Source: an uncultured Methanosarcinales archaeon
GTDB lineage: Archaea; Nanobdellota; Nanobdellia; Woesearchaeales; GW2011-AR9
Direction: 5' to 3'
Assembly: GCA_964373955.1 (NCBI GenBank)
Contig: CAYJXA010000001.1
Coordinates: 108,301-172,300 of the forward strand
DNA: 64,000 bases
This document shows, in pieces, positions 1 through 63,976 of the stretch. The notes beneath the pieces are model-generated. The model had not been told where the DNA came from. It searched no databases and saw only the letters and a program-made list of their open reading frames with translations. The number at the start of each line of letters is the position of its first letter. The stretch's first letter is position 1. The position numbers were made by a program, and so were the translations under genes.

Positions 1-1060
1 TTTTTTTCACGATACTATTCTCAAAAGCCCCTGATTCCAGCATTTCCTGAGCTTTCTTGGTTAATTCCCCCGTATATAATAATAGAAGGGGAAGTTTCTT
101 AATTTGAGCCTGCATATAGGCAGCAGAAAGATCTTTCTCATCGCACTTAGTTTTCTGCTTAGCTTTGCAAAAATAGGTCATCATGCCTACTGCGGAAGGA
201 ACTTTAAGCAGAAATTCCATCTCTGCATTCTTGCGGATGGTTTCTTTCTGCTCGATCGTAATTTTGAGCTTTTTACAGTATTCTTCTACGGAAGGTAATA
301 ATTCATCCTCACTCTTCCGCTTGCTTATCCTTTCCCTAACCCGCTGCAAGAGTGGTTTCTTCACCATCGTAGAGACTTTTTCTTCAGGCAAATCTTCTTT
401 TTTAGCTGATTCTGCAACCACAAGATTATCCTTTTGTTCTTCTTTCTCCATCAAGTGCTGTCTGGGAAGGCTCGGAGAAGGAGATATCGGTTCTGAGGGA
501 GTGATTTTATGCTCAAAACTACCCAAAGTAGTTCCTAAGCCGCTTGGCAAGGGTTCCGGAGCAGGAAGGGAAGCAGAAACGGGAAATTCAGGGAGCGTAA
601 TTGGATTCTGGCTGGAAATAAACAATATTTCACTAAGAAGCTGGTTGGTTTCCTCAGCGGAAAGAAGCGCCCACTTCCAAAACAATTCTGCTTTTCCTTC
701 TAAGGTTACTCGCAAAGGAAGGGCAAAATCACGTAAGTTTCGTAGCGCCACCTTATCCAGAAGCTCTAAATGCGATTCTCGCAGTACTTTTTTCTCTTTT
801 AAGAGATTAAGAACATGCAAATCTTTAGGATTAATGTTGCCTGCGGCAAACTGATGTAGCTGGGATTCCTGCCCAGGAAGGTAATAAAGAGGAGAACCAC
901 CGATCTTAAGAAAGGAAACTTTTACTTTTCCCTGCGCCGCTAGGTCGGAAAGCGAAGCAGATGCCAGAAGGATATCAGTACTGAGCATTTTAGCTACCTT
1001 TGCCGGCAAACTGGGCCCTGTAACTCGTAAAAAATGAATAATTTTGTCTTGATCGCTCAT
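1..1060 (-). CDS. Hypothetical protein with N-terminal winged-helix-like region; 3' part runs off the window edge (partial)
   Basis: Reverse-strand ATG at 1060-1058 and an open frame to position 1 with no stop (MSDQDKIIHFLRVTGPSLPAKVAKML...). It is not in the ORF track because it has no in-window stop. The plus-strand ORF 183..854 is its antisense shadow. Confidence 0.4.
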   Translation of the reverse strand, partial: MSDQDKIIHFLRVTGPSLPAKVAKMLSTDILLASASLSDLAAQGKVKVSFLKIGGSPLYYLPGQESQLHQFAAGNINPKDLHVLNLLKEKKVLRESHLELLDKVALRNLRDFALPLRVTLEGKAELFWKWALLSAEETNQLLSEILFISSQNPITLPEFPVSASLPAPEPLPSGLGTTLGSFEHKITPSEPISPSPSLPRQHLMEKEEQKDNLVVAESAKKEDLPEEKVSTMVKKPLLQRVRERISKRKSEDELLPSVEEYCKKLKITIEQKETIRKNAEMEFLLKVPSAVGMMTYFCKAKQKTKCDEKDLSAAYMQAQIKKLPLLLLYTGELTKKAQEMLESGAFENSIVKK

Positions 1061-5022: not shown

Positions 5023-6255
5023 ATGAAATACGCTCACCTCGCCGATCTCCATCTTGGATCCTGGCGTGAACTACAGATGAAAGAACTTTCCACCAAAGCC
5101 TTCCTCAATGCTATCGATCTTTGCATCCAACAGCAAGTGGATTTCATCCTTTTCGCTGGCGACATCTTTAACACTTCCCTCCCCTCACTTGACACGCTTA
5201 AAATAGTGACCAAGAAAATCAAAGAGTTGAAAGACCACCATATCCCTCTTTACGTGATCGCGGGATCTCACGACTTTTCTCCCAGCGGCAAAACGATGAT
5301 TGATGTGCTTGAAAATGCGGGATTGCTCACCAACGTTTGCAAAGGGGGGGTACATCCGGAAACCAAGCAACTTCAGTTGCATTTCACCCAAGATCAGAAA
5401 ACGGGAGCAAAGGTTACCGGAATCCTAGGCCGGAAAGGCCAATTAGATAAGAGTTACTATGAAAATCTTTCCCTGGAACCGTTAGAACAGGAAACAGGAT
5501 ATAAAATTTTCATGTTTCATACTTCTATTTCCGAATTGAAGCCAAAACATTTAGAAAACATAGAATCACAGCCAGCTTCTTTCCTTCCGAAAGGATTCAA
5601 CTATTACGCTGGAGGACATATCCATCACCGCACTCAAGTTGACCTTCCAGGCTACGGAACGTTGACTTATCCCGGAGCATTATTTCCCAATAATTTCGCT
5701 GAAATAGAAAAGTACAGTCACGGGGGCTTCTATCTTATTACTGTAGAAGAAAGCACTCAACAGATTCAGTGGATCCCTGTAGAGATAGTAAAACATCATG
5801 CTTTTACCTTCCACTGTGCTCACGAATCGCCAGAAGCTATGTACAACCAGATTATGGACTACTTTAAAGACCTGGGAGTAGGAAACAGCTTAATCACTAT
5901 CCGCCTCCAAGGAAAATTGGGTTCAGGGAAAGTCTCTGACATTAACTTTAAGAGAATTTTCCAAGAGTTGTATGCTAGGGGAGCTTATTTTGTCATGAAA
6001 AATACGGCTCAATTAGCCTCTTCGGAATTCGAGGAGGTCAAGATTGCTGAAAGCAGCCCGGAAGAAATTGAGGAAAGAATCATCAAAGAACATCTCCAAC
6101 AAAACCAACTCTTCGAGAAAGATGTGGAGCTGGGGATAATCACCGGCCTTTTGAACATTCTGAATACAACCAGGAGAGAAGGAGAAACAAGTACAACTTT
6201 TCAAGAGAGGATCGTTGAAAACCTAGAAAAGCAATTCTTGCCAGGGAGAGATTAA
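5023..6255 (+). CDS. mre11: DNA double-strand break repair nuclease Mre11 (metallophosphoesterase)
   Basis: MKYAHLADLHLG..GDIF.., GSHD and GGHIHHR phosphoesterase motifs, 410 aa. No rad50 is adjacent. Confidence 0.85.
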   Translation: MKYAHLADLHLGSWRELQMKELSTKAFLNAIDLCIQQQVDFILFAGDIFNTSLPSLDTLKIVTKKIKELKDHHIPLYVIAGSHDFSPSGKTMIDVLENAGLLTNVCKGGVHPETKQLQLHFTQDQKTGAKVTGILGRKGQLDKSYYENLSLEPLEQETGYKIFMFHTSISELKPKHLENIESQPASFLPKGFNYYAGGHIHHRTQVDLPGYGTLTYPGALFPNNFAEIEKYSHGGFYLITVEESTQQIQWIPVEIVKHHAFTFHCAHESPEAMYNQIMDYFKDLGVGNSLITIRLQGKLGSGKVSDINFKRIFQELYARGAYFVMKNTAQLASSEFEEVKIAESSPEEIEERIIKEHLQQNQLFEKDVELGIITGLLNILNTTRREGETSTTFQERIVENLEKQFLPGRD

Positions 6256-6327
6256 TTTCTTGATTACCCTAATTAGAAGAAAAAAGATAGGACTAAAAAA
6301 GAAAAACTCAAAAAGGAAATCGCCCAG

Positions 6328-6416
6328 AGCGAAGCTTTCCGCAAGGAAAGTCACGAACGAAGTGACTCGACGAGCATCCCACCGGTCCAAGACCGGGTGG
6401 AAAATTCCGTGATTTT
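6328..6416 (+). ncRNA. Copy A of a repeated structured RNA-like element (GNRA-capped hairpins, ends in ttccgtgatttt plus a U-tract)
   Basis: About 50-nt 5' block agcgaagctttcCgCaaggaaagtcacgaacgaagtgactcgacgag plus 3' ggaaaattccgtgatttt. A near-identical block occurs at 17324..17480. It lies about 70 nt downstream of the mre11 stop and overlaps the stop of the convergent gene. Confidence 0.35.
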
Positions 6417-6888
6417 ACCTTTTTTGGCTATGAATATACACGGCAACAAGAGCACCAATAGCCACAATTGCTAAAGTAGCCCACAACCAGCCTAATTCTA
6501 GTGCTTCCCGATCCATTTTTTCTGCTACTTCTAGTTCTTCAGTTGGAACCGTTTGATCTTGAACTGCTTCCTCTTGAATTTCTTCTGCAGGTGCAGCTTC
6601 TTCAGGTGCTTGTTCCGCCGTTTCTAGTTCTGGTTCTTCTGCTGCAGGTGCGGGCGCAGATTGCTTAACACAAACACCATTTACCTTCGTGTAACCAGCA
6701 ATACAAGTTCCACCTACTCCTCTCCCTCCGCCGCCCCCGCCGCCACCAGTACTGGAGGAGCTTGAACTACTACTGGAAGAACTACTTCCACTTGGCGCAC
6801 TTCCCGGACCGTACGCCGCAAACGCAAATGAAACTAAAAACAAAGTTATAATCACAAAAACAAAGGCTTTTTTCATTGTGACTTTCAT
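6415..6888 (-). CDS. Small secreted/membrane-anchored Ser/Gly-tract Cys-containing protein
   Basis: N-terminal signal peptide, poly-Ser (13x) and poly-Gly tracts, acidic linker, C-terminal TM helix. Its start overlaps the stop of the upstream giant Cys-rich gene (operon). Confidence 0.55.
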   Translation of the reverse strand: MKVTMKKAFVFVIITLFLVSFAFAAYGPGSAPSGSSSSSSSSSSSSTGGGGGGGGRGVGGTCIAGYTKVNGVCVKQSAPAPAAEEPELETAEQAPEEAAPAEEIQEEAVQDQTVPTEELEVAEKMDREALELGWLWATLAIVAIGALVAVYIHSQKR

Positions 6889-6889: not shown

Positions 6890-9800
6890 TTAACATCCCC
6901 ACTCCGCTGGAACGCGCCAGGTTGTCAAGTTTGTAGTAGTATTATAACCCAAATTTGTAGCGTTCGCAGTTTTATTCACGCAGTTTCCAAGATTAGCATT
7001 ACACTGCCACAACACAGTTACGTTCCCTGGAATTCCAATTTCCAGTTTCTTCGGTCTGAAAGCGTTAATTAATTCCTGACACTTGGTATTTCCCAAGCCA
7101 ACAAAAGTCCCATTAGTGGTCGAATTAATTCCGATGTCACCTGTTCCAGGAGTAAAGTTTTGAGCACCGGTAGAAACTTTACCAGTAATGCTTGCATTAA
7201 CTAAAACCACTTTCCACTTGCTGCTATTCGAAGCGGTAGGATTTTCTATGACCAGATCGAAGCCTTTAGTCTGGCTGTAATTCAAGTTAACACCTGCGCT
7301 GCTATTCCCCGTAACATTATTTGTCGTCCCACCAGGTAACCTAAAAGTAAAGGTAATATTTCCCAGCGGATCAGTTGCTACCGCTCCCGAAGGGGGCGTG
7401 AAAGGGAACGTAAAAGTACTGGTACAAGTTTTACAGGTAGTTAACGTTCCTTTCGTCGTAAAATTGGAACAAGCGCTCACAGCACAATTACTACTGATAT
7501 CGCACACCGTTGTTTTGTAGTAATATACTGTTGCATTGTTCAATGTAGAGCCAACTTTATCTGGATTAAAATCAAAGTTATCAATAGAAGCATCGTGCCA
7601 GAGCCGATAATCTTGAAGCCCAGTATCAATAAGACCACTATCTCTTATAGTTTTATTTAATACCTTACAGGTGCTGTCGTTATTGTAAAAAGAGAGGGTT
7701 CCATTTGCCGGTTCATTAGTATCATAACTGATGAACGCTGAATCAATGAATGGATCCACCTGTGACCAGGTTATTTTTGGTGCTGTCTTATCATTCGCAT
7801 CAGCTTGTAAGACTCCGCCACAGAAATAGGAATCATAGCTGCAGCCAGCATCATCACAATCTGTTAGTCCGTCAGCATCGTTATCCACACTATCCTTACA
7901 CTGGAACCCAGCTTCATTGGGCACGAATCCAAACTTGAGGAAGCTGAAACAGTCCGGATCATTACTTGCGGTTATTCCATCCCCATCATTGTCTCCTCCA
8001 GTGTTAGAACAATCCTCAAACTTAAAGTCAAAAGAGCCGGGAGTATAGAAGTATGGTCCGGCAACATCCACCACAAAGCTATCGTTAGTGGTAATATTAC
8101 TTACAGTAGCATAGACGCGCATACTCTTGCTCTTATTGTAAAGAGACTTAAACTTGCTGAGCTCTACTTTGTCTATCCCGGCCATTCCTCCCCCAATCAA
8201 AGAACACATTTTTGCCCGATCCGAGGTAACCGGTATGGGAACTGCTCCCCAGCTGCCATTGAAACACTGGAAAGATGTTTTTATTTCTGCTAAGCTAGAG
8301 GTATAATTACCCTGATACTTAAATGAAAACTCAAACCCAGTTAAAGAACTATTATCCCGGGCAGCACAATTATTGGTCGCATTTCCATCGGTATCAAGAT
8401 ACCAAAGAAAGGTGTGATCCAAACTACCTGATCCGACACCGTTAGTTTTCAAAGGAATACTATTGCAAATTCCACTTCCAGTGAAATCCTGAATTACTGA
8501 TCCCAGCACTAAACGATCAAAGTCATCACGCAACCCTAACTGGCCTAAGTCATAATTATCACTTATTCCAGGTTGGTTGCCATCATCACCTAAGAATGTT
8601 GGTTCTATATTTCCCATGAACGTAACAAAGCCACCTTCTCCTTTGGGATCACAGAATCCAGAAACATTTTGGTTTTCTACGTTACTGGTTACATTATTAT
8701 TAAACCGACTATCTGTAAACCAGGTACAACTTGCATTCAAAGATCCCTCACATTTACTTTTATTCCCATCAGCACTAAAGCAATTTCCTCCAAAGGATTT
8801 AGGTTCACATAAGCCCGTAAGCTGTTCACATAACCCATTTGTTCCCGTCAGACAGGTAGCATTCGACCTCGTGAAACAAACAGGTTCACATTGTCCCAAA
8901 GAGTTATAAGTAGTACTCCAAGCACAGACTTGGGTAGATATGCCTCCAATAGTCACATTTGCTTCGCATGCTGCCTGGGAACTTCTTCGAGTAGCGTTGC
9001 CAAAACACTGTGAAAAGATAAGCGGCTCACACCAGCCCCCTCCACCAAAACCGCCGCCGAAACCTCCCCCCGTATTCCATCCGCAGCCCCTCGTTGTTTC
9101 GCACGCAGTTTGATTTTGGTTAGAGAAGCAATTATCTTCGGCAGTTGCATTTACTTCACAAGTACCGCCTGCTATAGAAATATAAGTACAGTCGGCAGTA
9201 TTGGAACAGCCCGTCTGATCAGTATCAAATTGCCAGCATTGTGCTCCCGGAAAGTCACAATGACCACCACTGGCTCCTCCAAAAGTACTTTCAAAATCAT
9301 CTTTCAGCCAGGCGCAGCCGTTAGAAGTACAGGTGGAATTACTGGTATAGCTGGGGCAGTTGCCAAATTTATCGTTTAAATCGTCCCCCCCGCAGAATTT
9401 GTCTGTAGCACAGTCTGCATCCGCACAGTCCGTTTTAGCGTCATTATCATTATCCTGTCCGTCAAAACAAACTTCCCCGGTAAAACCTACCGGTTCGCAA
9501 TAATAATTTACACTATCCCAGCTGCAAGATCCATTTCCCCCTTTTCCAGTGTTAATGCAGTCACTAGAGGAATAACAGCTGAAACAATCATTCCCACAGC
9601 GTTTCTCATTCTTGCCAAAACAATATCCCGCTCCGTTGGCAGCGCTAGTATCCGCTGCCCAAACACAGCCAGCAGTACTGTTCTCACACTTTGCCTGTGG
9701 TGCAGTTAAGAACTCACAAGCACCACATACATCATCACAATCTTTTCCTCCACCAATCACAAAAGCGTCTTTCGGAGTACACCACCCATACCCGTTAAAA

Positions 9801-22877: not shown

Positions 22878-22923
22878 TCAAAAATCAAAAAGTTTAAGTA
22901 CAAATATCTCTTTCTAATCCTTG

Positions 22924-23724
22924 ATGAAAGAAACCATTCTCAAATATGCTCTTAAAAATGCACTAGAGTTCCAGGGCAAAGTAAATCAAAATGTGGTGCT
23001 GGGATTAGTTTTAAGAGATCATCCAGAGCTTAAAAAAGATGTTCCCAAGGTTCGGCAAGAAATTGAAAAAGTCATTCTGGAGATTGGAAAACTAACCCTT
23101 GAAGAAAAAAAAGAGAAATTAGAACACCTTGCCCCGAATTTGCTTCAATCACCACCCGAAGAAACCGCCGAAGGACCATTAAAGCCGCTTCCCAAGGCAG
23201 AGAAAGGAGCGGTAAAAGTAAGAATCGCTCCTTCACCGAGCGGAGCGCTTCATATAGGGCATGCGTATGGAGCTTCTTTAAATTACGAATATAGTAAGAT
23301 GTATCAGGGAAAACTCATCCTGCGGATTGAAGATACCAATCCCGAAAATATCTATGAGCCCGCATATAAATTAATCGAGGAAGATCTGCGATGGTTAACG
23401 GAGAATAACGTGGCGGAAGTGCAGGTGCAATCTTCTCGCTTAGGGATTTATTACGATTATGCAGAAAAATTAATTCGCGACGGAAAAGCATATGTGTGCA
23501 CCTGCAATGCGGAAGTTTGGCGGGAGATGAAAAACCATGGTAAAGCCTGCTCTTGTCGAGAACTCCCCACTAAAGAACAGCACGTACGCTATGCGAAAAT
23601 GTTTAGCGGCTATGCAGAAGGGGAGGCGGTACTACGATTAAAAACAAATATCCAAGACAAGACTCCGGCGAGGCGGGATATAGGCATTATGCGTATTGTT
23701 GATCATGTTAATCCAAAGACATGA
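22924..23724 (+). CDS. gltX: Glutamyl-tRNA synthetase, N-terminal part (HIGH region), terminated by an in-frame TGA
   Basis: VRIAPSPSGALHIGHAYGASLNYEYS...LRIEDTNPEN class I Glu/Gln-RS signature. Ends ..RIVDHVNPKT then TGA. Confidence 0.7.
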   Translation: MKETILKYALKNALEFQGKVNQNVVLGLVLRDHPELKKDVPKVRQEIEKVILEIGKLTLEEKKEKLEHLAPNLLQSPPEETAEGPLKPLPKAEKGAVKVRIAPSPSGALHIGHAYGASLNYEYSKMYQGKLILRIEDTNPENIYEPAYKLIEEDLRWLTENNVAEVQVQSSRLGIYYDYAEKLIRDGKAYVCTCNAEVWREMKNHGKACSCRELPTKEQHVRYAKMFSGYAEGEAVLRLKTNIQDKTPARRDIGIMRIVDHVNPKT

Positions 23725-23748: not shown

Positions 23749-24624
23749 ATGGTTTTTTCAGTTGCAGTAGATGACCATGAACTGGGGGTTACTCACGTCT
23801 TAAATGGGAAAGATCAAGCAGATAATGCCGTGAAGGAGCGCTTGATTATGGAATTTTTGGGGTGGAAAGCACCGGAGTATAAACATTGGGGCATGATTAA
23901 TTTTGAAGGGTTTATCTTAAGCACTACTCAAACCAGGAAAGCCATCGAGCAAGGAGAATACAAAGGATGGGATGATATTCGCCTACCCTTTCTTCCTGCA
24001 TTGCGTAAAAGGGGTTACCAGCCGGGAGCTTTCCGCCGTTACGCTGTAGAAATCGGACTCAGCCTAAATGACAAGACCGTAAGTAAAGAAGAATTTTGGA
24101 AAAATATTAATGCCTTCAACAAAGAGATTGTAGATCCCCTTGCAAATAGATATTTCTTTATTGACGATCCCGTAGGAATAGTCATCGAAGGTTGCCAGAA
24201 AAAAAGTGTTGAGCTGGAATTGCATCCTGATTTTCCTTCGCGGGGAAAAAGAACTTTTCTTACTGATGAGAAATTTTACATTAGCATGCACGATTTTAAA
24301 AGACTGGGAGAAGGGTATATTCACCGTTTGATGGATTGTTGCAATTTTGAATTGCGGAAAAATAAATTATATTACCTTTCACAGAGTTATGAAGAATACA
24401 AAAATGCAACGAGGAAAGGACATATCATTCATTGGTTGCCTCACGCCGCTAAGAATGTTCAGATGGAAGTGCTTCAAGAGAATGGGTTAACTACCGCCGG
24501 ATTGGGTGAGGAGCGGTTAGCACAGTTGAAGGAAGGAGAAATAGTCCAGTTGGAACGGCGTTATTTTGCGCGGGTAGTGAGGAAAGAGAAAGAGAAGGTT
24601 ATCTTTTGGTATCTGCACAAGTAA
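23749..24624 (+). CDS. gltX: Glutamyl-tRNA synthetase, C-terminal part (same reading frame as 22924..23724)
   Basis: Begins MVFSVAVDDHELGVTHVLNGKDQ. This is the conserved AVDDH..GITHV block that follows the HPRTG-DKY.VWP segment, so the TGA sits exactly where the conserved Gly is expected. Confidence 0.7.
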   Translation: MVFSVAVDDHELGVTHVLNGKDQADNAVKERLIMEFLGWKAPEYKHWGMINFEGFILSTTQTRKAIEQGEYKGWDDIRLPFLPALRKRGYQPGAFRRYAVEIGLSLNDKTVSKEEFWKNINAFNKEIVDPLANRYFFIDDPVGIVIEGCQKKSVELELHPDFPSRGKRTFLTDEKFYISMHDFKRLGEGYIHRLMDCCNFELRKNKLYYLSQSYEEYKNATRKGHIIHWLPHAAKNVQMEVLQENGLTTAGLGEERLAQLKEGEIVQLERRYFARVVRKEKEKVIFWYLHK

Positions 24625-28053: not shown

Positions 28054-31000
28054 CTATTGCTTTTCTTTTCCAAGCTCTTTATTCAATTTCTCTAATTCTC
28101 CCTCAACCTGCAACAATCTTTTTTTCAGAGAAACTGACTCGCTGAGGGAAGACTTTGGACGAGAAATTCTTTCTGCTTCTTTCGCTTTCCGAGCACTATC
28201 AGCAGGCCCCAATCCGGCGATAGTTTCTTCGATTTGTCCTAGTTTTCGATTTAAGAATCTCTTTCGCTCTAGCGAGTCAACTCGGGAGGAAATATTCTCA
28301 TGGGAAGCAGGAGGTAAAAACTCTGGGGGTAGCTGTCCCGCTCTGAGCATACCGAAAGGGGGTTTTGGCGGTACCACTGTACCCGCTTCTGGCTGGTACT
28401 CCAATGATTTAAGATTTTTGTTAATCTGGTCATACTCTTCCTGTAGTTCTACCTGCTGCTTCTTTCCCCAAGCTGAAGGAAGAGTGACGCTAATGCTTGG
28501 TGCGGTCTTCTCAACTTCTTTCTTCCGTTCTCTGGTTTGGATAAAAGCTTTATATTTTCGATATTCTTCCCGCATCAAAATGGAAGTCAGGAAGAGCAAA
28601 GGTAAAAAGATAAGGAGAGCAATTAATCCTACCCAATACGAACTATACTGCAACGCCCTCCCTTTAAACTGTTGGAAGAATGCGCCCCCAACTAGAGCTC
28701 TTGCTTTAGGAGGCACAACTTCAGGGGCAACTACTACCGGAAGAGGTGCTGCCGCCATCACTTCGATCTGACGATGACTGGTAATGTGATAATCTCCATA
28801 CGTTAATTCAATAGTAAGAGTATACTGCCCTGGCTCAAGATCAGAAGGCACAAAGAGAGTTGCATTTTCTATTTCCTCCCTGCCGCTTTGAATAAAAATA
28901 ACATCTTTCCCCTCGGTTTTTATTACCCCCTCTTTCTCCAGGGTGAAATCCAAAACGACGTCTCCGGAAATATTGCTTACCGCTTTCATTAAATATCTCA
29001 CCATGATATTTTCCCCAGCCGGTACCGGAGAGGTAACATCAAGTATCCTTAGGTCAAAGAGTTTTACACAGGAGTGTTGAATGCACACTTCATCAGTACT
29101 ACATTGATCATCAGTGATACATTCATACTCTATGCATTGGTTATTGAAACAATATTGATCTGCTTCACAATCAGCATCGGTGGTGCATTCTACTTTTGGT
29201 TTACTTGCTCCACCTCCGCCGCCTCCACCCCCCGTTACCGCTTCGCTTTCCGTTGTAATCGTTTCACTGGCAGTAAAACTGCTGAAACTGGAAGTATTAA
29301 AAGTGAGTGTTCCGCTGCTGTAACTGATAAGAGTACAACCTGAGCCAAGACAATCAGATCCGCTTATCTCGCTAGCGCTTGATCTAAAGAGTGGATCCTT
29401 AGTCACCCCCGTAACTGAACTAAAAGTAAGCCCTTGAAGAATGATTGTTCCTGTCCGATTTAGGCCTACGAACGCAGAAGTATTAAAAGCGAAAAAATTA
29501 TCTGCAATGATGAGGTTCTTTCCATGCCCCAGCTCAAAGGGAAGACTGATATTAGAGATATTTGTCCATTGCACTGAACCAAAACTATTGTTATATTTCA
29601 TAGTTTGGGCGCAGGCAGATCCGGTAAAGAGAAGAGTAGTATTCTCAAACTGGTTATCCACAAAAGTGTTATTGCAAGAGTTCTCAACTGCTACTCCGGA
29701 AGTTATATTTCTCGTTTCCCGCACTTGTAAAGAGAGAGGATAGGTATATCCGCTACTAACATTAAAACTGGAGTTAAACAGGGCAGTAAGATTATCAATA
29801 TAATTAGAGGAATTGCCATTAGCTATTAAAGCATTAGTGATGTAAAAATCACAAATAGATCCGGGGAGATTAGTGACAACATTACTACAATTAGTTAATC
29901 CGTTAGTATCAGCAGAATCTTTCCGAAGAAAGATGGTCTGGTTAGAAGGAGTTGATCCTGAACTAGAATTAAGAAAACCAAGAATAAGATTAAAATTGTT
30001 ACTGCCATCCGCCATAATGATGGTGGTGTTATCTGCAGAAACATTAACGGAGCCGCCGCCGCCGGTGTACCTTAGGCTGCCATTATAAATCACCCCATTA
30101 TACGTCAAAGGCGAATAGGAGCTTCTAAAAGATATGATAGAAGATATTCGACTGCTATCATTGATAATATTACTCTCTAGATAGGAATGGTTAGAAAGAT
30201 TAAGAAGTACCGCCTGAACCCCCTCTTCATAAATAAGATTCCCCGTGAGATTTGCTTGGCTGCTGTTGAAAATTTGTATAGCCCAAGCAACATTAGAGTG
30301 TAAAACAGTATCAGTAATAATGCTCTTGCTGGTGTTATCAACAGAAATTCCCTGGGTATTCGTTGTAAAGGTGCTATTGCTTACTGTTACATTATTAGTA
30401 TTAGATTCAAAAACCCCCAGAGAAAAATTACTGATGAATATATTTTTAACAGTGACATTATTTACATCACTTATATTTACTCCTAACCCTACGCCATTGC
30501 CGATAATCGCATACCCTGCACCATCAATGATAATATTACTTCTCAGAACGGTAAAACAGGTTCCAGAGGAGGTAATATTTCTCGTTAAAGTAACGCTGGA
30601 GTTAACAGAGCCACACAATGTGTCAAGAGCCGCAAAACTGCTAAAAGAGGTAGTATTAAAGAGAAGTACTTGGCTAACATTATCAAAACTAAAAATAGTG
30701 CAGGAAGTGCCATTACAATTGGTTCCGCTGGTTCTTATTTCATTGGCATTAGTATTAAAAGTCTCCAATCTTCGGATATTGACCACTTCACTAAAACCAA
30801 GCCCCCTAAGAGTAATATTTGCGCTGGAGTTAATTCTTCCAGAGGTGAAAGCGGAAGTATTTACCGCAAGGGTATTATTTCCAATAAAGATATTCCTACC
30901 TACACCGATACCATTAGAATTATTAACATCTAAAGTTAAATCCCGAAGGAAACTACCCGTACCATTATCAATCCATTCGATCCCTCCAAAAGAGTTATTG

Positions 31001-34000
31001 TAAATAAGATAGTTACTGACATTAGCAGCACTATCGTCAGAAATTTCCACAGACCCATTAGAACTGATATTAATGTTGACGAAATAATTATTTCTTATAC
31101 AGTCTCCACTAGTGCAATCTCCCAGCGAAAAAGAGTTAAGGAAGAGAGCGCTAGACGTGCCAAAGTGAGTAATATTTTCATCTGTAAAAGTGTTGTTCTC
31201 AACTACTCCCTGCCCCTGAAGATCATAGGATATGCCCAGGCTGCCCCCCCCGGAATAGAAACGATTAGAAGAAAAATTCATAGTATCCACTCCAGCTATG
31301 AGCACGGTGCTCCCAAAAGCAGCAAAATCTATCAGGGTATTAGAGAAGAAAATTCCCCCGGACACATTACGTAAAATTATTCCCCCCTGGTTACTGTTAT
31401 TAGTTCTATTCACGTAATTTCCAGTGATATTAAAGCTTTTTGATTGAAATGAAATATTAGTATTAATTGCCGTCCCCGAAGAATTTAATTCAAAGAAGTT
31501 GTTAGCGATGGTCGTATGATTAGAGTTTTGTACAAAAAGAAGATCGAGACCTGATCTGGTTCGTGTTACTAAGGTCATATTGGTAATATTAGTACCGTTC
31601 GAATTCTGAACACGAATGTTAGTAGTGAAATTATTCAGCGTGAAATTAAAAAGAGTAATATTGTTAAAACCATTAATAGTTACTCCCGTCCCCGAGCCAT
31701 TACTGTAAACGGAATGGCCAGAACCATTGATGAAGAGGTTAGAATTATTAATAATAAAACAGTCCCCGGTACTACTTAAATCATGATTTAAGGTAAAACT
31801 AGCGGTTACCCTCCCACAGAAATTACTGATGGTAAGATTTCTTGTTTCAGAAACTGCAGAAGTTCCCCCGTCACTACAGTTAATAGACCAGTGGTATTCC
31901 CCATTGAGAAGAGAAGCATTAGCAGTTATACTAGTAGCGGTTGCATTTCGGGTAGAACTATTTCGGCCATAAGGGGCTGTAACCCCCTCGCTATTGTTCA
32001 AATAAAGAGTACAGTCTAAAGTTCCCTGTTGCGCTAGATCATCCGTGACATTAAAAGCAAAACGAGGAGTACTATTAGTATTGTTCAAAGTGTTATTGGG
32101 AGGAGATAAAAGGGAGATAGTAGGAGAACTGTTATCAGCGGTGACGGCAGTGAAACTGCCAAAAGAAGTCATGTTAAAGAGAAGAACTTGAGAGGCATTA
32201 TCAAAACTCAAAATAAGACAGGATGTTCCATTACAATATTCCCCTCCAGTTTTAATTTCATCGATATTCGTGCTAAACGTTTCTAACCGCTGGATGTTAG
32301 CTACGGAATTAAATCCTAAACCGACTAGGGTAAGATTGGCGCTAGAATTAATTCTTCCTGACGTAAAAGCAGACGTGTTAATGGTAACGCTATTATTACG
32401 AATAAAGAAACTCCTCTCTAATCCTATCCCCAAAGCATTACCAACCTGAAGATCTAAATCATCCAGGAAACTATTGTTAGTCCATTGAATTTTACCAAAG
32501 GAGTTGTTATATACAAAAGAATTGAGGTTAGAGTTTCCTGATTGATCATCTATTTCAGAAGTACTAGCGCTGGAGATATTATTATTTCGAAGAGTATTGT
32601 TGGCGGCACTAGCTTGGATAATAATACTTCTAACGGTATCAGTAGTGAAGTTATTCTCCACAAGCGTGTTTCGAGAGGCGTTCTGTCCAAGATTAACCAA
32701 CCCTCTTATAATATTAGACGAGATGTTGTTATCGCTGGAAGATTCACCGGTAGTAGTAATAAAGTTGAAATCAAGAGCAATACCGTCTCCCAAGCTGGTG
32801 ATATTATTAAAGTCTACAATACTAAAACTAGAGTTGACAAAATAAAGACTGCTGCTGTTAGTGGTAACAATTCTATTAAAACTAATGTTGTGGGACAGCG
32901 CATGTTGGGCTAGGATTCCCTCGGCTGCATTTCCAGTCGTATTAACATTATTAAAAATGATGGTGTTGTTTCTTTCACCCGGATTGATTAATATCCCTAC
33001 CGCTCCTAATCCCGAAGTGATAACCGTATTAGATTGCAGACGATTGGAAGAAACAGCAATGTCCAACCCATAAGAATTATTTCCTGAAGTCACCACTTTA
33101 TTTGAATCGATAACCAGGAGGGTTGAGGTGAGTGATCTTATTCCAGGTGACGAGTTAGTAAAAGTAGTGACATTATTTCTGCTGATGTTAGACCGGTTCG
33201 CGCTGGAGAAACTAATTCCTATACTGCCTGTGCTTGCATTGCCAGAAATAATGGTGTTATTCCAGATGGTGTGATTGACGGAGTCTCTTACATCTATTAC
33301 GGTGGAAAAGTTAACCGCGATTAGGTTTCGAACGGTGAGATTATTGAATCCAATTGCTAAAACTGCCGAGCCAGATCCATCTCCCGTTATGGTAAATCCC
33401 GCACCCTCAATCAGGATGTTAGAAGCGTTGACGATAAAGCACGTGCCATCAGTACTGATATTATTGTTAATAGTGACATCATTATTAATAGTGCCGCATT
33501 GAGTTACATTGCTTCCCGAAGTAGCGGAATAATTACTAAATGAAGCAACTGTCGCAGTTAAGATTCCCGTAGTAGAATCATAGGAAGCGATAGTGCAGAG
33601 AGTATTATCGTTATCACACCTCACCCCATCTTTCAATAAGAATGGCTGGGTAGAGTAAGTTAAATTTTTTATGTCTATACGGGCGGATCTATTAAGGTTA
33701 AGCGACTGAGCTGTGTCGAGAATACCCGTGAGATTTTGCTGTAAAAAGATAGTTTGTCCAAGCACTAAACTCATATTGGTAGTGAGATTTTCCCTGGTCC
33801 AGTTTATCATCCCAAAAGAATTATTGTAAATGAGCGTGTTGTTAGTCTCTAAGCCACTCAGATCATAAATACTAAAATTTACTACGGCATTGATGGTATT
33901 ATTCCGGAAAGTATTGTTATAGGTGCTAACATCACTTATCTCTATAGTGGCCAAGGTGGAATTGCCAGTAATATTGTTAGCGATAAAAGAGTTATTACTA

Positions 34001-37000
34001 TTATTGATGAGCAGAAGACCATAACTATTCCAGCCAATGATAGTATTAGATGCGATTATCCCCCCGCGGGTGTTCAACATATACAATCCTGGTGCTATTG
34101 TCCCGGACGTGTTCATATAATTCTGGGAGATGTTAGTCCTATTTGCAAAATTTCTAAGTTCTATTGACGCGCTAGCATTGGCAATAGTACTGAGAGTATT
34201 ATTAAAGAGTACACCGTCAAGAGCGCTGTCCCACCAGATTGCGTCTTTGTTAGAGGAAGTATCCGCCTGTTCAACCATCAGGCAGTTTTTAATGGTGACG
34301 TTATGAAAGCCGGTGTTATTAACTCCCTTTCCCTCTGCACTGGAAGAACCATACCTAATAACATTTCCAGTACAATTAATGAAAATGTTGGATGCGTTTA
34401 TAATGAAACAAGTGTTCTCCGCGCTTACATTCTGGTTGAGAGTAAAATTTCTATTGACATACCCACAACTAGCAATGTCCGCAGCAAAACTGCTAAACGA
34501 AGTAGTATTGAAACGCAAGATGCCGGTGTTTACATTATAATTAAAGACAAGGCAAGAATTGCTGCTGATACAATCAGTTCCTGCTCTGATCACGGTAGTA
34601 CTATTCTCATCATACTCTTCCAAACGACGGATACTTTCAACCCTGCTGACATTAAGGGCATAGAGGGTAAGATTCGCGCTGGAGTTTATTCTCCCCGATA
34701 CAAATGCGGAAGTATTAACGGTGATAATATTCTGCCCAATGAAAATATTTCTACCTAATCCAATCCCCAGACTATTATTAGCATTCAAGGTTAAATCCTG
34801 CTGAAAGCTCGTATTCGTCCATCGGATCTCCCCAAAGGTGTTGTTATAAATGAGATAATTTACCAAACCTGCTGATGACGAATCAGAAATCTCAGTGTTA
34901 TTTGACGTAAAGTTATTGTTTAAGAAGGTATTATTTTCAGAAGTGCTTAAAATTGACAACACCGTCGATTTACTCGAATTAAGGGAATTGTAATCGAAGA
35001 GGTTATAGCTGCCATTAACTAGGTTAATAGCAAGGTTAGGGCCAGAGCCAGTCGTATTGATGATGTTAGAACTAACATTATTATAGTTAGAAGTCCTTAA
35101 ACCAAGACCAGTAGAACCATTCCCGATAGAAAACAGAGTATTAGAAAGTAGGATATTGCCCTCTGAAAAGTTGAGCAGGATTCCATGAGAATTGGTAGCA
35201 TTAATAGTGAGGGTGCTGGTGTTAATCACAGAACTATTTGTGTCTTGAAAAACGATACCTGGTCTTTCTCCATCCCCCGCTGCGGTTTCGATAGTGACAT
35301 TAGAGATGGTAATATTAAACCCAGCAGTGATATGAATCCCTTCTGAAAAATTGTTGAGAGCAATATTCCTAATAGTAATATTCCTAAAGCCTGAACTGTT
35401 GATTCCAAACCCGCTTCCGGTTCCCGTGAGTACATACCCGGCACCATTAATCAGGATATTGGAAGCATTAATAGTTAAACAAGTTCCCGTAAAGGTTGTA
35501 TTTTGAGTTAAAGTGAGATTCCCATTGACCGTTCCACAAATGGAAGACCCGTTTCCCAAGGCAGCAAAACTGCTAAAAGAAGTAGTATTAAACCGCAAAG
35601 TACTATCTGCTCCCATACTAAACACGGTACAACTACTCCCCAGGCAATCCACCCCATTGTTAGAAATATTGGTAGAATTCGTATCATAAGCAGGAACTTT
35701 CAGAATAGAATTTATCGCCGTAAAGTTCAAACCAAAGACGGTTATGTTAGCTGTTCCGTTAATCCAGCTGCTCCCGAACGTAGAAGTATTTAACGCAATA
35801 ACATTGCTCCCTATAAAAAGATTCCTTGCTAAACCAATACCCTCACTGCTTGCAACAGAAAGTGTTAGGTTCCGAGTGAAGCTCCTTGTTCCATTATCAA
35901 TCCATTTTATCTCACCAAAAGAGTTATTATAGATGAGATAATTACTGACATTGGTAGCACTATTATCCTGTATCTCCTGGGACCCATTTGTGCTTATATT
36001 CACATTAATGAAATAATTATTTCTCACGCAATCCCCACCGGAACATTCTCCTTGCGAGAAAGAATTAAGAAAAACGGCGCTTTGAGTTCCAAAACTAGTA
36101 ATGTTGTCATTGGTGAAAGTGTTATTTTCCACAACGCCCATCCCTTGAAATCCAAAGGCGGTTGACAAGCTCCCTCCCCCAACGTATACTTTGTTAGAAG
36201 AAAAATTACTGTTAGTAACTCCCATTAAAAGAATCGCCGTTCCACCACTTCCAAAATCGAAGAGGGTATTGGAATTGAAATTCAAGCCAGTGATGTTTCC
36301 CAGATTGAATCCCCCCTGATTAGAATTATTTGTTCTATTAACGTAATTATTAGTAATGTTTAAATCGGTATTTAGAAAAAGAATGTTAGTATTAAGGGTC
36401 ATGGAAGAGGTATTCTGCTCAAAATAATTATTAACAATAGTGGTATGGTTTACATTTTGTAAGCTTATCAAAGCTTGCGTATTAGTTATGCGAGATAGAA
36501 AAGTAACGTTAGTGATATTAGTACCATTAGAATCCTGGACATAAATTTGTTGCGAGAAATTGTAAATAGTGAGATTAAAGATGGTAATATTATTGAAACC
36601 AGTGATATTAATTCCCACGCCAGAACCATTGCTAATAAGGGAATAACCAGAACCATTGAGAAATATGTCTGAACCATTAATGATAAAGCAGTGCGTATCC
36701 GCAACAATATTCTGAGTAAGAGTATAAACTCCGCGAGCAGTAAGATTAGCACAAGTTGATTGCAGGACCGTAGGGATGATGTATCCTGTGGGTGAAATGA
36801 TATTTGAAGGGTTATTCTCTGTTACTATTTCAACTGAAGCCCCAGTAATACTGTTTCCTGTTCCAAGGAAGGAATCCAGTGTAGTCACAATTATTTCTTT
36901 TTCGGAAAAAAAATGTCCCGGAATAGTATCAAAAACCAGAGTGGTAGTTGGCTCACTGACCAATAAGACAAAAATAAAAGAAATCATTCCTGCAAGCAAG

Positions 37001-37062
37001 AAATATTCTTTAGTCTCGTTCAGTGAATTCCTTTTCCAGTTTTTTCTCTCTCCTGATTTCAT
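28054..37062 (-). CDS. Giant (3002 aa) surface protein: N-terminal signal/anchor, multiple N-glycosylation-rich parallel beta-helix repeat modules, Cys-rich knot, C-terminal TM helix and cytoplasmic coiled-coil tail
   Basis: Uninterrupted 9 kb ORF. Asn/Thr/Ser-rich with hundreds of N-x-S/T sequons. The recurring TSFSSFAA motif marks about 6 modules. GGGGGGGG linker, CTTDADCEADQYCFNNQCIEYEC knot, then a TM (WVGLIALLIFLPLLFLTSILM) and a K/E-rich tail. Confidence 0.8.
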   Translation of the reverse strand: MKSGERKNWKRNSLNETKEYFLLAGMISFIFVLLVSEPTTTLVFDTIPGHFFSEKEIIVTTLDSFLGTGNSITGASVEIVTENNPSNIISPTGYIIPTVLQSTCANLTARGVYTLTQNIVADTHCFIINGSDIFLNGSGYSLISNGSGVGINITGFNNITIFNLTIYNFSQQIYVQDSNGTNITNVTFLSRITNTQALISLQNVNHTTIVNNYFEQNTSSMTLNTNILFLNTDLNITNNYVNRTNNSNQGGFNLGNITGLNFNSNTLFDFGSGGTAILLMGVTNSNFSSNKVYVGGGSLSTAFGFQGMGVVENNTFTNDNITSFGTQSAVFLNSFSQGECSGGDCVRNNYFINVNISTNGSQEIQDNSATNVSNYLIYNNSFGEIKWIDNGTRSFTRNLTLSVASSEGIGLARNLFIGSNVIALNTSTFGSSWINGTANITVFGLNFTAINSILKVPAYDTNSTNISNNGVDCLGSSCTVFSMGADSTLRFNTTSFSSFAALGNGSSICGTVNGNLTLTQNTTFTGTCLTINASNILINGAGYVLTGTGSGFGINSSGFRNITIRNIALNNFSEGIHITAGFNITISNVTIETAAGDGERPGIVFQDTNSSVINTSTLTINATNSHGILLNFSEGNILLSNTLFSIGNGSTGLGLRTSNYNNVSSNIINTTGSGPNLAINLVNGSYNLFDYNSLNSSKSTVLSILSTSENNTFLNNNFTSNNTEISDSSSAGLVNYLIYNNTFGEIRWTNTSFQQDLTLNANNSLGIGLGRNIFIGQNIITVNTSAFVSGRINSSANLTLYALNVSRVESIRRLEEYDENSTTVIRAGTDCISSNSCLVFNYNVNTGILRFNTTSFSSFAADIASCGYVNRNFTLNQNVSAENTCFIINASNIFINCTGNVIRYGSSSAEGKGVNNTGFHNVTIKNCLMVEQADTSSNKDAIWWDSALDGVLFNNTLSTIANASASIELRNFANRTNISQNYMNTSGTIAPGLYMLNTRGGIIASNTIIGWNSYGLLLINNSNNSFIANNITGNSTLATIEISDVSTYNNTFRNNTINAVVNFSIYDLSGLETNNTLIYNNSFGMINWTRENLTTNMSLVLGQTIFLQQNLTGILDTAQSLNLNRSARIDIKNLTYSTQPFLLKDGVRCDNDNTLCTIASYDSTTGILTATVASFSNYSATSGSNVTQCGTINNDVTINNNISTDGTCFIVNASNILIEGAGFTITGDGSGSAVLAIGFNNLTVRNLIAVNFSTVIDVRDSVNHTIWNNTIISGNASTGSIGISFSSANRSNISRNNVTTFTNSSPGIRSLTSTLLVIDSNKVVTSGNNSYGLDIAVSSNRLQSNTVITSGLGAVGILINPGERNNTIIFNNVNTTGNAAEGILAQHALSHNISFNRIVTTNSSSLYFVNSSFSIVDFNNITSLGDGIALDFNFITTTGESSSDNNISSNIIRGLVNLGQNASRNTLVENNFTTDTVRSIIIQASAANNTLRNNNISSASTSEIDDQSGNSNLNSFVYNNSFGKIQWTNNSFLDDLDLQVGNALGIGLERSFFIRNNSVTINTSAFTSGRINSSANLTLVGLGFNSVANIQRLETFSTNIDEIKTGGEYCNGTSCLILSFDNASQVLLFNMTSFGSFTAVTADNSSPTISLLSPPNNTLNNTNSTPRFAFNVTDDLAQQGTLDCTLYLNNSEGVTAPYGRNSSTRNATATSITANASLLNGEYHWSINCSDGGTSAVSETRNLTISNFCGRVTASFTLNHDLSSTGDCFIINNSNLFINGSGHSVYSNGSGTGVTINGFNNITLFNFTLNNFTTNIRVQNSNGTNITNMTLVTRTRSGLDLLFVQNSNHTTIANNFFELNSSGTAINTNISFQSKSFNITGNYVNRTNNSNQGGIILRNVSGGIFFSNTLIDFAAFGSTVLIAGVDTMNFSSNRFYSGGGSLGISYDLQGQGVVENNTFTDENITHFGTSSALFLNSFSLGDCTSGDCIRNNYFVNINISSNGSVEISDDSAANVSNYLIYNNSFGGIEWIDNGTGSFLRDLTLDVNNSNGIGVGRNIFIGNNTLAVNTSAFTSGRINSSANITLRGLGFSEVVNIRRLETFNTNANEIRTSGTNCNGTSCTIFSFDNVSQVLLFNTTSFSSFAALDTLCGSVNSSVTLTRNITSSGTCFTVLRSNIIIDGAGYAIIGNGVGLGVNISDVNNVTVKNIFISNFSLGVFESNTNNVTVSNSTFTTNTQGISVDNTSKSIITDTVLHSNVAWAIQIFNSSQANLTGNLIYEEGVQAVLLNLSNHSYLESNIINDSSRISSIISFRSSYSPLTYNGVIYNGSLRYTGGGGSVNVSADNTTIIMADGSNNFNLILGFLNSSSGSTPSNQTIFLRKDSADTNGLTNCSNVVTNLPGSICDFYITNALIANGNSSNYIDNLTALFNSSFNVSSGYTYPLSLQVRETRNITSGVAVENSCNNTFVDNQFENTTLLFTGSACAQTMKYNNSFGSVQWTNISNISLPFELGHGKNLIIADNFFAFNTSAFVGLNRTGTIILQGLTFSSVTGVTKDPLFRSSASEISGSDCLGSGCTLISYSSGTLTFNTSSFSSFTASETITTESEAVTGGGGGGGGASKPKVECTTDADCEADQYCFNNQCIEYECITDDQCSTDEVCIQHSCVKLFDLRILDVTSPVPAGENIMVRYLMKAVSNISGDVVLDFTLEKEGVIKTEGKDVIFIQSGREEIENATLFVPSDLEPGQYTLTIELTYGDYHITSHRQIEVMAAAPLPVVVAPEVVPPKARALVGGAFFQQFKGRALQYSSYWVGLIALLIFLPLLFLTSILMREEYRKYKAFIQTRERKKEVEKTAPSISVTLPSAWGKKQQVELQEEYDQINKNLKSLEYQPEAGTVVPPKPPFGMLRAGQLPPEFLPPASHENISSRVDSLERKRFLNRKLGQIEETIAGLGPADSARKAKEAERISRPKSSLSESVSLKKRLLQVEGELEKLNKELGKEKQ
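30250..36780 (-). repeat. Internal large segmental repeats within the giant gene (for example about 0.9 kb at 35.9-36.8 kb, about 70% identical at protein level to 30.25-31.2 kb)
   Basis: Protein segments FIINGSDIFLNGSGYSLISNGSGVGINITGFNNITIFNLT... and FIINNSNLFINGSGHSVYSNGSGTGVTINGFNNITLFNFT... align over about 300 aa. Confidence 0.5.
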
Positions 37063-46411: not shown

Positions 46412-46801
46412 ATGGATTCATCTCCTTTTTGGAAATTGGTATATCAAGTATATCCCCCACTCCTGCGTTTTCTTGAAAGAATGAAAGTCCATTCCAAAAG
46501 ACAACCTTTCATTTTGGGAAAAGTAAGAGGCAATGCTTCCATTGAAGAGATTCAAAGTTTTCTGGTAGGAAATGGCTTTGAGCATGCTATTCTTGCATGG
46601 AAAGACCCGGAAGAAGTGCTTAGTGTGCGAAAGAGAGACAAATCAAATTTTCAGTATCATCTTAGGATTTATAATGATATGGAAATACGAGGACATTACG
46701 AGTTCAGGCCAGAAACTAACCCTTGGAAGCACATTAGAGAAACTTTATTTGAATCGAAAGAACAAGACTTCAAACTATTACTCCAGCCATACTTACGATA
46801 A
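46412..46801 (+). CDS. Hypothetical protein
   Basis: ORF beginning MDSSPFWKLVYQ immediately after the previous stop. Confidence 0.35.
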   Translation: MDSSPFWKLVYQVYPPLLRFLERMKVHSKRQPFILGKVRGNASIEEIQSFLVGNGFEHAILAWKDPEEVLSVRKRDKSNFQYHLRIYNDMEIRGHYEFRPETNPWKHIRETLFESKEQDFKLLLQPYLR

Positions 46802-60013: not shown

Positions 60014-60023
60014 AATGTAATAC

Positions 60024-63441: not shown

Positions 63442-63976
63442 GGAGTGGTTGGTGTGGTTGGTTTGGCTGGTGTGGAAACTTTACAGAATATTGCCGACCA
63501 TCAGTATATTCTATTTTAATATCCTGAAGATCCATTCCGGCAAAGGTCATTTCTTTTGTTTCTGATCCAATAGCGGTGCGATAATCCAATTCTTGCGTGT
63601 ACGTTCCTTTTCCTTGTCGGAAAGTAAACAAGACGCGCTCCACCGGATGTGCGGAATTTTTGGTGAATTGAACGTTATATGCATTGGTAGCACTATTCAC
63701 AAAATCATCCAAGCTCAATCTTAATTCACCACTCGTCGCATTACCTAGTGGAACGTATCTCCCGTTAATCATGAGTCCACCTTTATTATCGGATTTCCCC
63801 GAAACTTCGATTCGGGTATGCGCGCGTTCATCAATGCTGACTCGATCAGACGTGGTGAGATAAATAATAGAGAAACATAACGCTGCTAATCCGGTTGCTT
63901 TCAATCCGGTTCTCGCGCGGCGTTCGCTCCACAGCCGACGGTACAAAGGCATTTCGAGTTTTGGATCCATAGTCAT
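63422..63976 (-). CDS. Single-pass membrane protein, hypothetical
   Basis: TM GLAALCFSIIYL. Overlaps the next gene by 20 nt. Confidence 0.4.
   Translation of the reverse strand: MTMDPKLEMPLYRRLWSERRARTGLKATGLAALCFSIIYLTTSDRVSIDERAHTRIEVSGKSDNKGGLMINGRYVPLGNATSGELRLSLDDFVNSATNAYNVQFTKNSAHPVERVLFTFRQGKGTYTQELDYRTAIGSETKEMTFAGMDLQDIKIEYTDGRQYSVKFPHQPNQPHQPLHEPKRK

Follow-up and report, generated by a model that had tools for sequence, protein, structure and literature searches.

A repeated structured element with a 36-nt two-hairpin cassette in Woesearchaeal DNA

REP/BIME sequences, Rickettsia palindromic elements (RPEs), and MITE-like repeats are short intergenic hairpin repeats with conserved stems that often lie between convergent genes, and RPEs can also sit inside RNA genes and UTRs. 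For DPANN archaea, whose tiny genomes hold little spare DNA, we know of almost nothing that has been described on non-coding RNAs. Another related system is that of the mobile bulge-helix-bulge (BHB) tRNA introns of Archaea, where intron transposition has been proposed for Thermoproteales (PMC4090602).

Here, we describe a structured element that occurs in two copies, A and B, in a stretch of Woesearchaeal DNA of 64,000 nt (hereafter, the window). For PGK, the closest named homologs carry Woesearchaeota or Nanoarchaeota annotations, which places the organism among the DPANN archaea; a cyanobacterial origin was rejected on this ground and because the DNA has no HIP1 sites. Both copies are members of an uncatalogued small Woesearchaeal (DPANN) family, although its general kind, the lineage-specific structured repeat or small RNA, is familiar. 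The element resembles REP/BIME, RPE, and MITE-like repeats in its intergenic hairpins, the conservation of its stems, its presence in RNA genes and UTRs, its modular and nested build, and the reduced genome that carries it. With BHB introns it shares the character of a small structured insert at new positions in RNA genes; this genome also has a splicing endonuclease and multi-intron tRNAs, and two of the five known loci abut tRNA genes. We tentatively favor reading the element as a modular small RNA or UTR element that has a low copy number and is restricted to its lineage; its 36-nt cassette would act as an insertion module and probably as a protein-recognition junction.

Two copies of the element and their genomic setting

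A preliminary description of this DNA had placed a repeated element at 6328–6416 and 17324–17480. Its presence at two sites was confirmed by pattern counts against shuffled sequences and by an unbiased repeat scan. Copies A (6307–6427) and B (17304–17490) have in common a 67-nt block with 84% identity and an 18-nt 3′ block, which is far beyond chance. In the unbiased scan, the 67-nt direct repeat (6321–6387 and 17317–17383) was the only dispersed non-coding repeat of the window. The 5′ block (AGCGAAGCTTTCYGYAAGGAAAGTCACG ... GTGACTCGACGAGYATCC) has exactly two occurrences in the window; its 28-nt and 18-nt sub-patterns were likewise found exactly twice in 64 kb, compared to 0.00–0.01 expected from the shuffles. 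The 3′ block GGAANATTCCGTGATTTT is exact at 6399–6416 and 17473–17490. The earlier limits had to be widened, as similarity begins further upstream, at CTCAAAAAG (6307 and 17304), and copy B ends at 17490. Between the 5′ and 3′ blocks lies one 20-nt hairpin in copy A and about 100 nt in copy B. The parts of the two copies, with helices as placed by predicted folds and cassettes by covariance model R1, are listed below.

Copy A
6307–6323, + strand: A-rich leader CUCAAAAAGGAAAUCGC, the 5′ strand of closing helix P1, pairing with 6409–6427 in both the minimum free energy (MFE) and the constrained fold
6324–6335, + strand: 5′ junction CCAGAGCGAAGC, conserved in copy B and containing GCGAAGC
6335–6370, + strand: 36-nt cassette (R1, 64.3 bits)
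6335–6350, + strand: hairpin 1 of the cassette, CUUUCC-GCAA-GGAAAG
6350–6366, + strand: hairpin 2 of the cassette, (G)UCAC-GAACGAA-GUGA(C), followed by UCGA
6371–6379, + strand: 3′ junction (C)GAGCAUCC, which reads GAGUAUCC in copy B and is contiguous with GAGCGAAGC at locus L024
6377–6401, + strand: predicted variable arm HP3, UCC..CCGGUC-CAA-GACCGG..GGA
6399–6427, + strand: conserved 3′ block GGAAAAUUCCGUGAUUUU and U-rich tail, with the P1 3′ strand at 6409–6427 and runs of T4 and T6

Copy B
17304–17320, + strand: leader CUCAAAAAGUCCCCGAC, with the 5′ strand of the closing helix (17308–17320 pairs with 17398–17410)
17321–17331, + strand: 5′ junction CAAAGCGAAGC, from the 5′ block patterns and the repeat scan
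17331–17366, + strand: 36-nt cassette (R1, 59.9 bits), with hairpin 1 CUUUCU-GUAA-GGAAAG (one G-U pair), hairpin 2 UCAC-GGAAGGA-GUGA, and then CUCGA
17365–17410, + strand: 3′ junction GAGUAUCC in a predicted 8-bp hairpin (17365–17383), and the 3′ strand of the closing helix (17398–17410)
17411–17490, + strand: extra 3′ hairpin domain that is not in copy A, with the perfect 12-bp inverted repeat CGGAAUGUUCCA/UGGAACAUUCCG

The leader portion CTCAAAAAG is common to both copies. The GCGAAGC of the 5′ junction was also found at loci L001 and L024; in copy A it is predicted to form a mini-hairpin, AGAGC-GAA-GCUUU, which competes with hairpin 1. HP3 of copy A resembles the CCACUGGUG/CACCAGUGG helix of L024. 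In copy B, the 12-bp inverted repeat is a perfect inverted copy of its own 3′ block and puts this conserved block (17473–17490) into a long stem.

Copy A lies between an Mre11-like gene (5023–6255) and the convergent ORF 6415–6888 (−), the last 13 nt of which are overlapped by its tail. The distances reported earlier between both copies and the preceding plus-strand stop codons, as well as the overlap of copy A with the stop codon of this ORF, were correct. Copy B is flanked by a conserved 128-aa membrane-protein gene (16892–17278) and, 44 nt downstream, by a two-intron tRNA-Gly(GCC) gene that had been missed in the preliminary description. This tRNA gene (17534–17723, +) carries a 51-nt intron at 37/38 (17571–17621) and a 67-nt intron in the T-loop at 59/60 (17643–17709). 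It was missed by ARAGORN and Rfam on genomic DNA and was recognized once spliced in silico. Its TATA box (TTTATTAATAAATA) directly follows copy B, and the same gene occupies the syntenic position in L004 and L009.

T-loop (59/60) introns recur in several tRNAs, namely at 17643–17709 of the window, in L009 (10690–10770, +, and about 9660–9880, −), in L010 (10460–10560), and in L011 (7865–7990). They have a common border design, UUCR-AA / ... YGAA-AG / U, which is compatible with a BHB motif, and some of them are alike (nhmmer E = 0.0055). A 12-nt identity, CGAACGAAGUGA, between one of the L009 T-loop introns and hairpin 2 of copy A was noticed post hoc and was reached by 0 of 500 shuffles. A gene at 2139–2822 (−) specifies a tRNA splicing endonuclease that has both an N-terminal and a catalytic domain, which is consistent with multi-intron tRNAs. 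GluRS is apparently split, with the first part of the catalytic domain at 22921–23724 (+) and its remainder plus the anticodon-binding domains at 23749–24624 (+). The listed ORF 183–854 (+) has an odd, low-complexity product, and a minus-strand ORF running from ~1060 past the left end of the window looks like the actual gene. A comparison of 43 window ORFs with Pfam, covering all but the 3002-aa ORF (28054–37062) and five ORFs at 59189–63976, found no transposase, TnpB, reverse transcriptase (RT), or integrase.

The cassette at other loci and its presence or absence

The conserved unit is the 36-nt cassette, which is present or absent within otherwise related RNAs and was overlooked in the preliminary description. 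Its consensus is CUUUCC-GNRA-GGAAAG / UCAC-GAACNNA-GUGA / CUCGA, usually preceded by CGAAG. Pattern scans and a covariance-model search of the kind proposed earlier found further copies outside this genome: three more distinct loci, on other Woesearchaeal contigs, carry the cassette. At L001 (JGI metagenomes) it lies beside a tRNA gene and is flanked by a 13-nt direct repeat, at L002 (a groundwater Woesearchaeota MAG) it is inside the 5′UTR of ribosomal protein L11, and at L019, which is identical to L020, a diverged cassette is located downstream of another L11 gene. The R1 scores at the five distinct loci (A, B, L001, L002, and L019) are 48–64 bits, and the next best match in the 332 kb of Woesearchaeal DNA scores 13 bits. 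The preliminary description had named two objections to its own reading, namely that only these two copies might exist, untranscribed, and that a known Rfam family might explain them. Since copies exist outside this genome and no Rfam model matches (see below), neither objection applies.

About 330 kb of Woesearchaeal DNA, fetched around PGK, the membrane protein, and L11, was searched with an HMM and covariance model R1, which added L019 only. Exact-pattern scans returned one true match (L002) among 185,579 species genomes and one (L001) among 241 million JGI metagenome records. About 130 kb of relatives' DNA, fetched via neighboring protein genes and not via a DNA match to the element, contained one copy. 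Viral contigs, phages, and plasmids gave no true match; more than 120 viral matches to a 15-mer of the junction were rejected, as their flanks were at chance level. Also rejected were L003 (Planctomycetota), a chance match in coding DNA; the window region at 950 (AAGCGAAGC...), which by translation is coding on the minus strand; and weak nhmmer matches at 46460–46620 in probable coding sequence. No neighboring gene is conserved across the copies, and no trans target of the junction sequence was found in the 64-kb window.

The L019 cassette lies in a 750-nt spacer after L11 (10742–11494), in which one AT-rich hairpin follows another. A second, weaker two-hairpin module (10853–10907; R1, 10.8 bits) and a further two-hairpin domain (11355–11425) are located in the same region. 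The L11 genes of four Woesearchaeal lineages (L002, at about 2435–2480, and L012, L016, and L019, upstream of L11) have a common promoter, CTATATAAATAG, and a conserved downstream motif, (C)TGTTACGC(G)CTTCAAA, presumed to be the mRNA start, which would place the transcription start 100–200 nt before the ATG. The L11 upstream sequence CTGTTACGC is the reverse complement of GCGUAACAG, which we take to be part of the L11-binding region of 23S rRNA.

One case of absence is L024, which represents ten independent assemblies of one population (L022–L031) downstream of the membrane-protein gene. There, the flanks of copy A are joined directly, without the cassette, as GCCCCGAGCGAAGC/GAGCAUGCCACUGG; the copy A counterpart reads GCCCAGAGCGAAGC, 36 nt, and GAGCAUCCCACCGG. 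The cassette is therefore a discrete insert into, or a deletion from, a common backbone. The variable arm of this backbone is also related between copy A and L024 (CCACYGGU/ACCRGUGG), and the L024 site is a strongly structured region (z = −4.9). All ten assemblies break 75–175 nt past the gene, in or just beyond a strongly structured 150-nt region, which suggests a repeat or a strain-variable junction at this position.

Absence was also observed elsewhere. The L11 of L012 is 91% identical to that of L002, and promoter, outer helix, and start region are all retained in L012; at the cassette position, it has only a GUUCAC-GAA-GUGAAC hairpin, and R1 did not detect a whole cassette in L012. The syntenic copy B sites in L004 and L009 keep the tRNA-Gly and have no detectable homolog of the element, and those in L010 and L011 have tRNA-Asn instead and no element. 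The L004 and L009 spacers looked vaguely similar by eye, but they aligned locally at chance level and are unstructured.

At L001, a perfect 13-nt direct repeat, TATGCGGGTATAA, at 12743–12755 and 12878–12890 flanks a 122-nt insert. The repeat covers the first 10 nt of tRNA(CAU) together with the 3 nt that precede them, and the insert separates this tRNA from its TATA box. As the TATA box lies upstream of the partial tRNA copy, the intact tRNA body is left without a promoter at the usual distance. A flanking direct repeat of at least 10 nt was found at L001 only, and none at A, B, L002, or L019. A further palindromic region was observed in L005 (16440–16685, −; the same as L007, 11270–11515), where 246 nt of nested near-perfect palindromes (MFE −108.8 kcal/mol, z = −13) follow a strong TATA box. 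This region and the L024 RNA have a two-hairpin module in common; the only Rfam matches of the region were spurious ones to miRNA hairpins.

These observations bear on an alternative that we regard as possible, if somewhat doubtful, in which the element is a selfish or neutral palindromic DNA insert like REP/BIME, RPEs, or small MITEs, with no RNA role. It would spread at the DNA level through a putative enzyme or template-switch inverted duplication, with RNA structure as a by-product, and settle harmlessly between convergent genes, in UTRs, and in the loops of other hairpins. The sporadic, non-syntenic distribution and the absences at syntenic sites are consistent with such an insert, as are the sequence-invariant stems with variable loops and the equal folding of both strands. 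So are the L001 direct repeat, which is typical of DNA insertion, the identical L024 flanks without the cassette, the inverted duplicate in copy B, and the nested palindromes at neighboring loci (L005, and the hairpin array of L019). However, copies are very few (two in 64 kb, and single matches in huge collections), the ends are the most variable part and form no conserved terminal inverted repeats, A and B have no flanking duplication, and nothing resembling a transposase was seen nearby among the ORFs scanned in the window. The placement of GNRA loops and G-U pair on one strand also argues against it, and a near-identical cassette amid unrelated flanks needs either selection or very recent transfer. 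Importantly, the RNA reading that we favor and this DNA-level explanation are not mutually exclusive.

Folding, strand, and known RNA classes

All full-length copies were more stable than their shuffles (z = −2.7 to −5.9), with z = −2.8 to −3.1 for copy A and −3.5 for copy B. In the predicted folds, an enclosing helix is present in every copy, with sequences unrelated between copies: AAUCCCA/UGGGAUU and more at L001, ACAAAGUUGUCAU/AUGAUAACUUUUGU plus GGCUG/CAGCC at L002, and UAUCUAUAGG/CCUCUUAGAUA at L019. The 3′ tail of copy A pairs with its own 5′ leader, which had previously been overlooked. An alternative helix proposed in the preliminary description (ggaaagtcacg/cgtgatttt) is indeed part of the MFE structure when only 106 nt of copy A are folded, but in folds that take in the A-rich leader, the tail pairs with this leader. 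Because hairpins 1 and 2 share one G, they cannot both be full length at once. In copies A and B, hairpin 1 and the leader/tail helix face competition from the GCGAAGC mini-hairpin and from the core/tail helix just described, so that alternative conformations are possible.

Hairpin 1 of L019 has two compensatory pair changes (UA to GC and CG to UA) and reads CUUGCU/AGCAAG; L019 alone shows such changes. All 50 alignment cells are paired (100%), against a weak shuffle control (38/500). The C-to-U difference between copies A and B in hairpin 1, previously taken as compensatory, is a one-sided change to a G-U pair and not a double change. The hairpin 1 loops are GCAA, GUAA, GUAA, GAA, and GAUA. 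Hairpin 2 did not vary in any copy apart from its loop (GAACGAA, GGAAGGA, GAACGCA, and GAACAAA). The center of the element is the most conserved part and its ends are the least conserved. Such a conserved center with free ends is the opposite of a transposon with terminal inverted repeats; junctions that are closed by a helix of arbitrary sequence typically show this pattern.

The two stems could also be read in DNA, with CTTTCC-N4-GGAAAG and GTCAC-N7-GTGAC as double-stranded operator sites to which transcription factor dimers would bind. Each is a perfect palindrome in DNA and has the size usual for operators, and at L002 they are located between promoter and start codon. This explanation is nevertheless hardly credible. 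L019 keeps the hairpin 1 palindrome with changed half-site bases, which means that pairing is preserved and not a protein-read sequence, and in copy B the palindrome is broken in DNA while the G-U pair is kept. In addition, most copies are at gene 3′ ends, away from promoters, and every copy has a larger enclosing complementarity.

Thermodynamics was uninformative on the strand, as the antisense folds equally well. The plus strand is favored by the GNRA loops (GCAA, GUAA, and GUAA), which are consistently on this strand, by the G-U pair of copy B, by the sense orientation of the cassette in the L11 5′UTR of L002, and by the relative L005, whose upstream TATA box gives the orientation of L024. 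Against the plus strand stand the hairpin-plus-T-run sites, which were found on the minus strand only (6332–6320 and 17330–17314); by consensus scan, these amount to one weak site per copy, at chance rate. The L001 tRNA also seems to need antisense read-through through the element.

The consensus scan found no intrinsic terminator on the plus strand, and the earlier suggestion of a terminator there is not supported. What remains of the preliminary interpretation is a repeated, structured, non-tRNA element, without the plus-strand terminator and without compensatory changes between A and B. A broader role at gene 3′ ends is an unlikely but separate explanation: the element would be a cis-acting structured 3′UTR or a bidirectional termination/stability module of convergent genes, shielding the mre11 and membrane-protein (or opposing) transcripts from 3′ exonucleases and marking the polymerase stop at T-runs. 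Its location fits in several cases. Copy A, L019, and L024, together with the related L005 RNA, are between convergent genes, copy B has a protein gene on one side and, on the other, a tRNA-Gly of the same strand that is followed by a convergent gene, and L001 is between a gene 3′ end and a divergent tRNA. The A-rich leader and U-rich tail provide T-runs on both strands, the small minus-strand sites described above combine a hairpin with such a run, and the tail of copy A overlaps the stop codon of ORF 6415–6888 (−). However, archaeal termination requires only oligo-T. Strong runs of T5, T4, and T4 lie between the stop codon and copy B, and the upstream transcript should therefore end ahead of the element. 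Furthermore, L002 is in a 5′UTR, L001 adjoins a divergent tRNA gene, and a generic stability hairpin needs no sequence-invariant cassette.

A search of the whole window with Rfam 15, which the preliminary description had called for, gave no matches anywhere at the gathering threshold, and local scans that admitted E values up to 10 yielded nothing but noise (12–18 bits). The related loci matched tRNAs or noise only. In agreement with the earlier statement that the copies are not tRNAs, ARAGORN and RF00005 found nothing at either copy, and the hairpin 2 loop, read from the sequence, has no U33.

Other candidate classes were rejected on their defining features. Copy A (6300–6430) has neither the TGATGA nor the CTGA of a box C/D sRNA, and the GUGAUUU of the 3′ block is a partial C-box look-alike. 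For a BHB intron, inspection of the predicted folds shows the cassette as part of a three-way junction, formed by CGA/UCG and the two hairpins; the 4-bp helix UGCG/CGCA of L001 is flanked by 1x1 and 5x5 loops. A MITE with conserved terminal inverted repeats does not fit the unrelated leader/tail helices of A, B, L001, L002, and L019, where the conserved part is central. The sequences GGAAAGUCAC and GGAAAGUC and the AAGUCACG/CGUGAUUU helix recall, in RNase P, CR-I (GGAAAGUCC) and P4, the helix that CR-I forms with CR-V; RNase P RNA was rejected because no model scores, two copies are present, and L001, L002, and L019 lack the 3′ partner. A diversity-generating retroelement was discarded, as the window has no other long near-repeat pair and the ORFs scanned have no RT domain. 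Hammerhead, kink-turn/k-junction, H/ACA, retron, integron attC, and TnpB omega-RNA each lack a defining feature here. A riboswitch or ribosomal-protein leader class was rejected because L002 alone is in a 5′UTR; A, B, L001, and L019 have no same-strand downstream gene except a tRNA with its own promoter.

A new catalytic or sensing RNA, i.e., a small self-cleaving ribozyme or a ligand- or protein-sensing leader such as an L11 binding site, was considered as well and is very unlikely. As a ribozyme, it would be a three-way junction made of an arbitrary closing helix, a GNRA hairpin, an invariant hairpin, and the conserved strands CGAAG and CUCGA. The conserved junction and hairpin 2, the arbitrary closing helix, and the diverse multi-copy contexts are as in small ribozymes. 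The L002 copy precedes the L11 start codon by 34 nt, a hairpin at the AUG competes with the outer helix of this copy, and the L019 copy also adjoins an L11 gene. The proximity to L11 is, however, partly due to the way the loci were fetched, and in the close relative L012 the L11 leader is retained but has no cassette. Even at E = 10, none of the ribozyme or riboswitch models in Rfam gave a match. The sequence has no hammerhead core (CUGANGA, GAAA), and at four of the five loci there is no gene downstream that could be regulated.

A proposed modular RNA element compared with known systems

In the modular small RNA or UTR reading, each copy would form a multi-helix fold, closed by pairing of the A-rich 5′ leader with the U-rich 3′ part. 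Its purine-rich junction (GAGCGAAGC ... GAGCAUCC) would be interrupted by the 36-nt cassette, whose two hairpins abut: the first has a GNRA cap and is free to covary, and the second has an invariant sequence (UCAC-GAACNNA-GUGA-CUCGA). The cassette would act as an insertion module, present or absent in otherwise related RNAs and UTRs. We infer transcription on the plus strand: copy A may be a small RNA or may belong to the mre11 transcript as a 3′ extension that ends in the T-runs at 6413–6425, and copy B may be transcribed from a separate start shortly before the tRNA-Gly promoter. The junction and invariant hairpin 2 would be a protein recognition site, for binding, processing, or stabilization, and not a base-pairing guide. 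The outer helix of the L002 L11 5′UTR, which is common to the cassette-poor L012, speaks for an RNA role, whereas the sporadic distribution and a covariation signal that comes from one sequence (L019; 38/500 shuffles) speak against it. An invariant hairpin 2 with varying loops is less suggestive of an ancient RNA fold than of recent spread or of a hairpin that is recognized as DNA or RNA. We consider it improbable that the cassette is a new, very small mobile structured-RNA module that inserts into loops and junctions of DPANN small RNAs, UTRs, and tRNA flanks. Such a module may have an activity of its own, self-cleavage or recruitment of a processing enzyme, that makes its insertions harmless or useful, and it would be a counterpart of mobile BHB introns or RPEs with a different architecture.

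Comparison with described systems separates the element from each of them. In contrast to RPEs and to REP/BIME repeats, of which a genome typically has tens to hundreds along with a RAYT-type gene, it appears to be of very low copy number (two copies in 64 kb), and it consists of two abutting hairpins with conserved junction strands instead of one palindrome. It has no conserved terminal repeats, no RAYT-type gene or transposase was seen among the window ORFs scanned, its GNRA loops and G-U pair are confined to one strand, and its host is a DPANN archaeon. Unlike BHB introns, the borders of the cassette and the element form no 3-nt bulge, 4-bp helix, and 3-nt bulge in the predicted folds, and most copies are outside tRNA and rRNA; the real T-loop introns found here do show the BHB motif. 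The element resembles hammerhead and twister-sister ribozymes in its compact junction with an arbitrary closing helix, a variable GNRA-capped hairpin, conserved junction nucleotides, and scattered contexts, but it lacks their signature sequences and has no Rfam match. A likeness to ribosomal-protein mRNA leaders, which are autoregulatory rRNA mimics, is seen at L002, where the element is in a long L11 5′UTR and its outer helix competes with the start-codon hairpin; in contrast, the window copies are upstream of no gene, and L012 has the leader without the cassette. If the favored reading is correct, it adds a lineage-specific RNA-protein recognition module; alternatively, hairpin parasites would remodel RNA genes even in minimal genomes. 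The multi-intron tRNAs, the nested palindromic RNAs, and the promoter-severed tRNA nearby suggest an unusually fluid landscape of RNA genes. The interest of the element lies in its modular presence and absence inside the RNA genes of a minimal genome.
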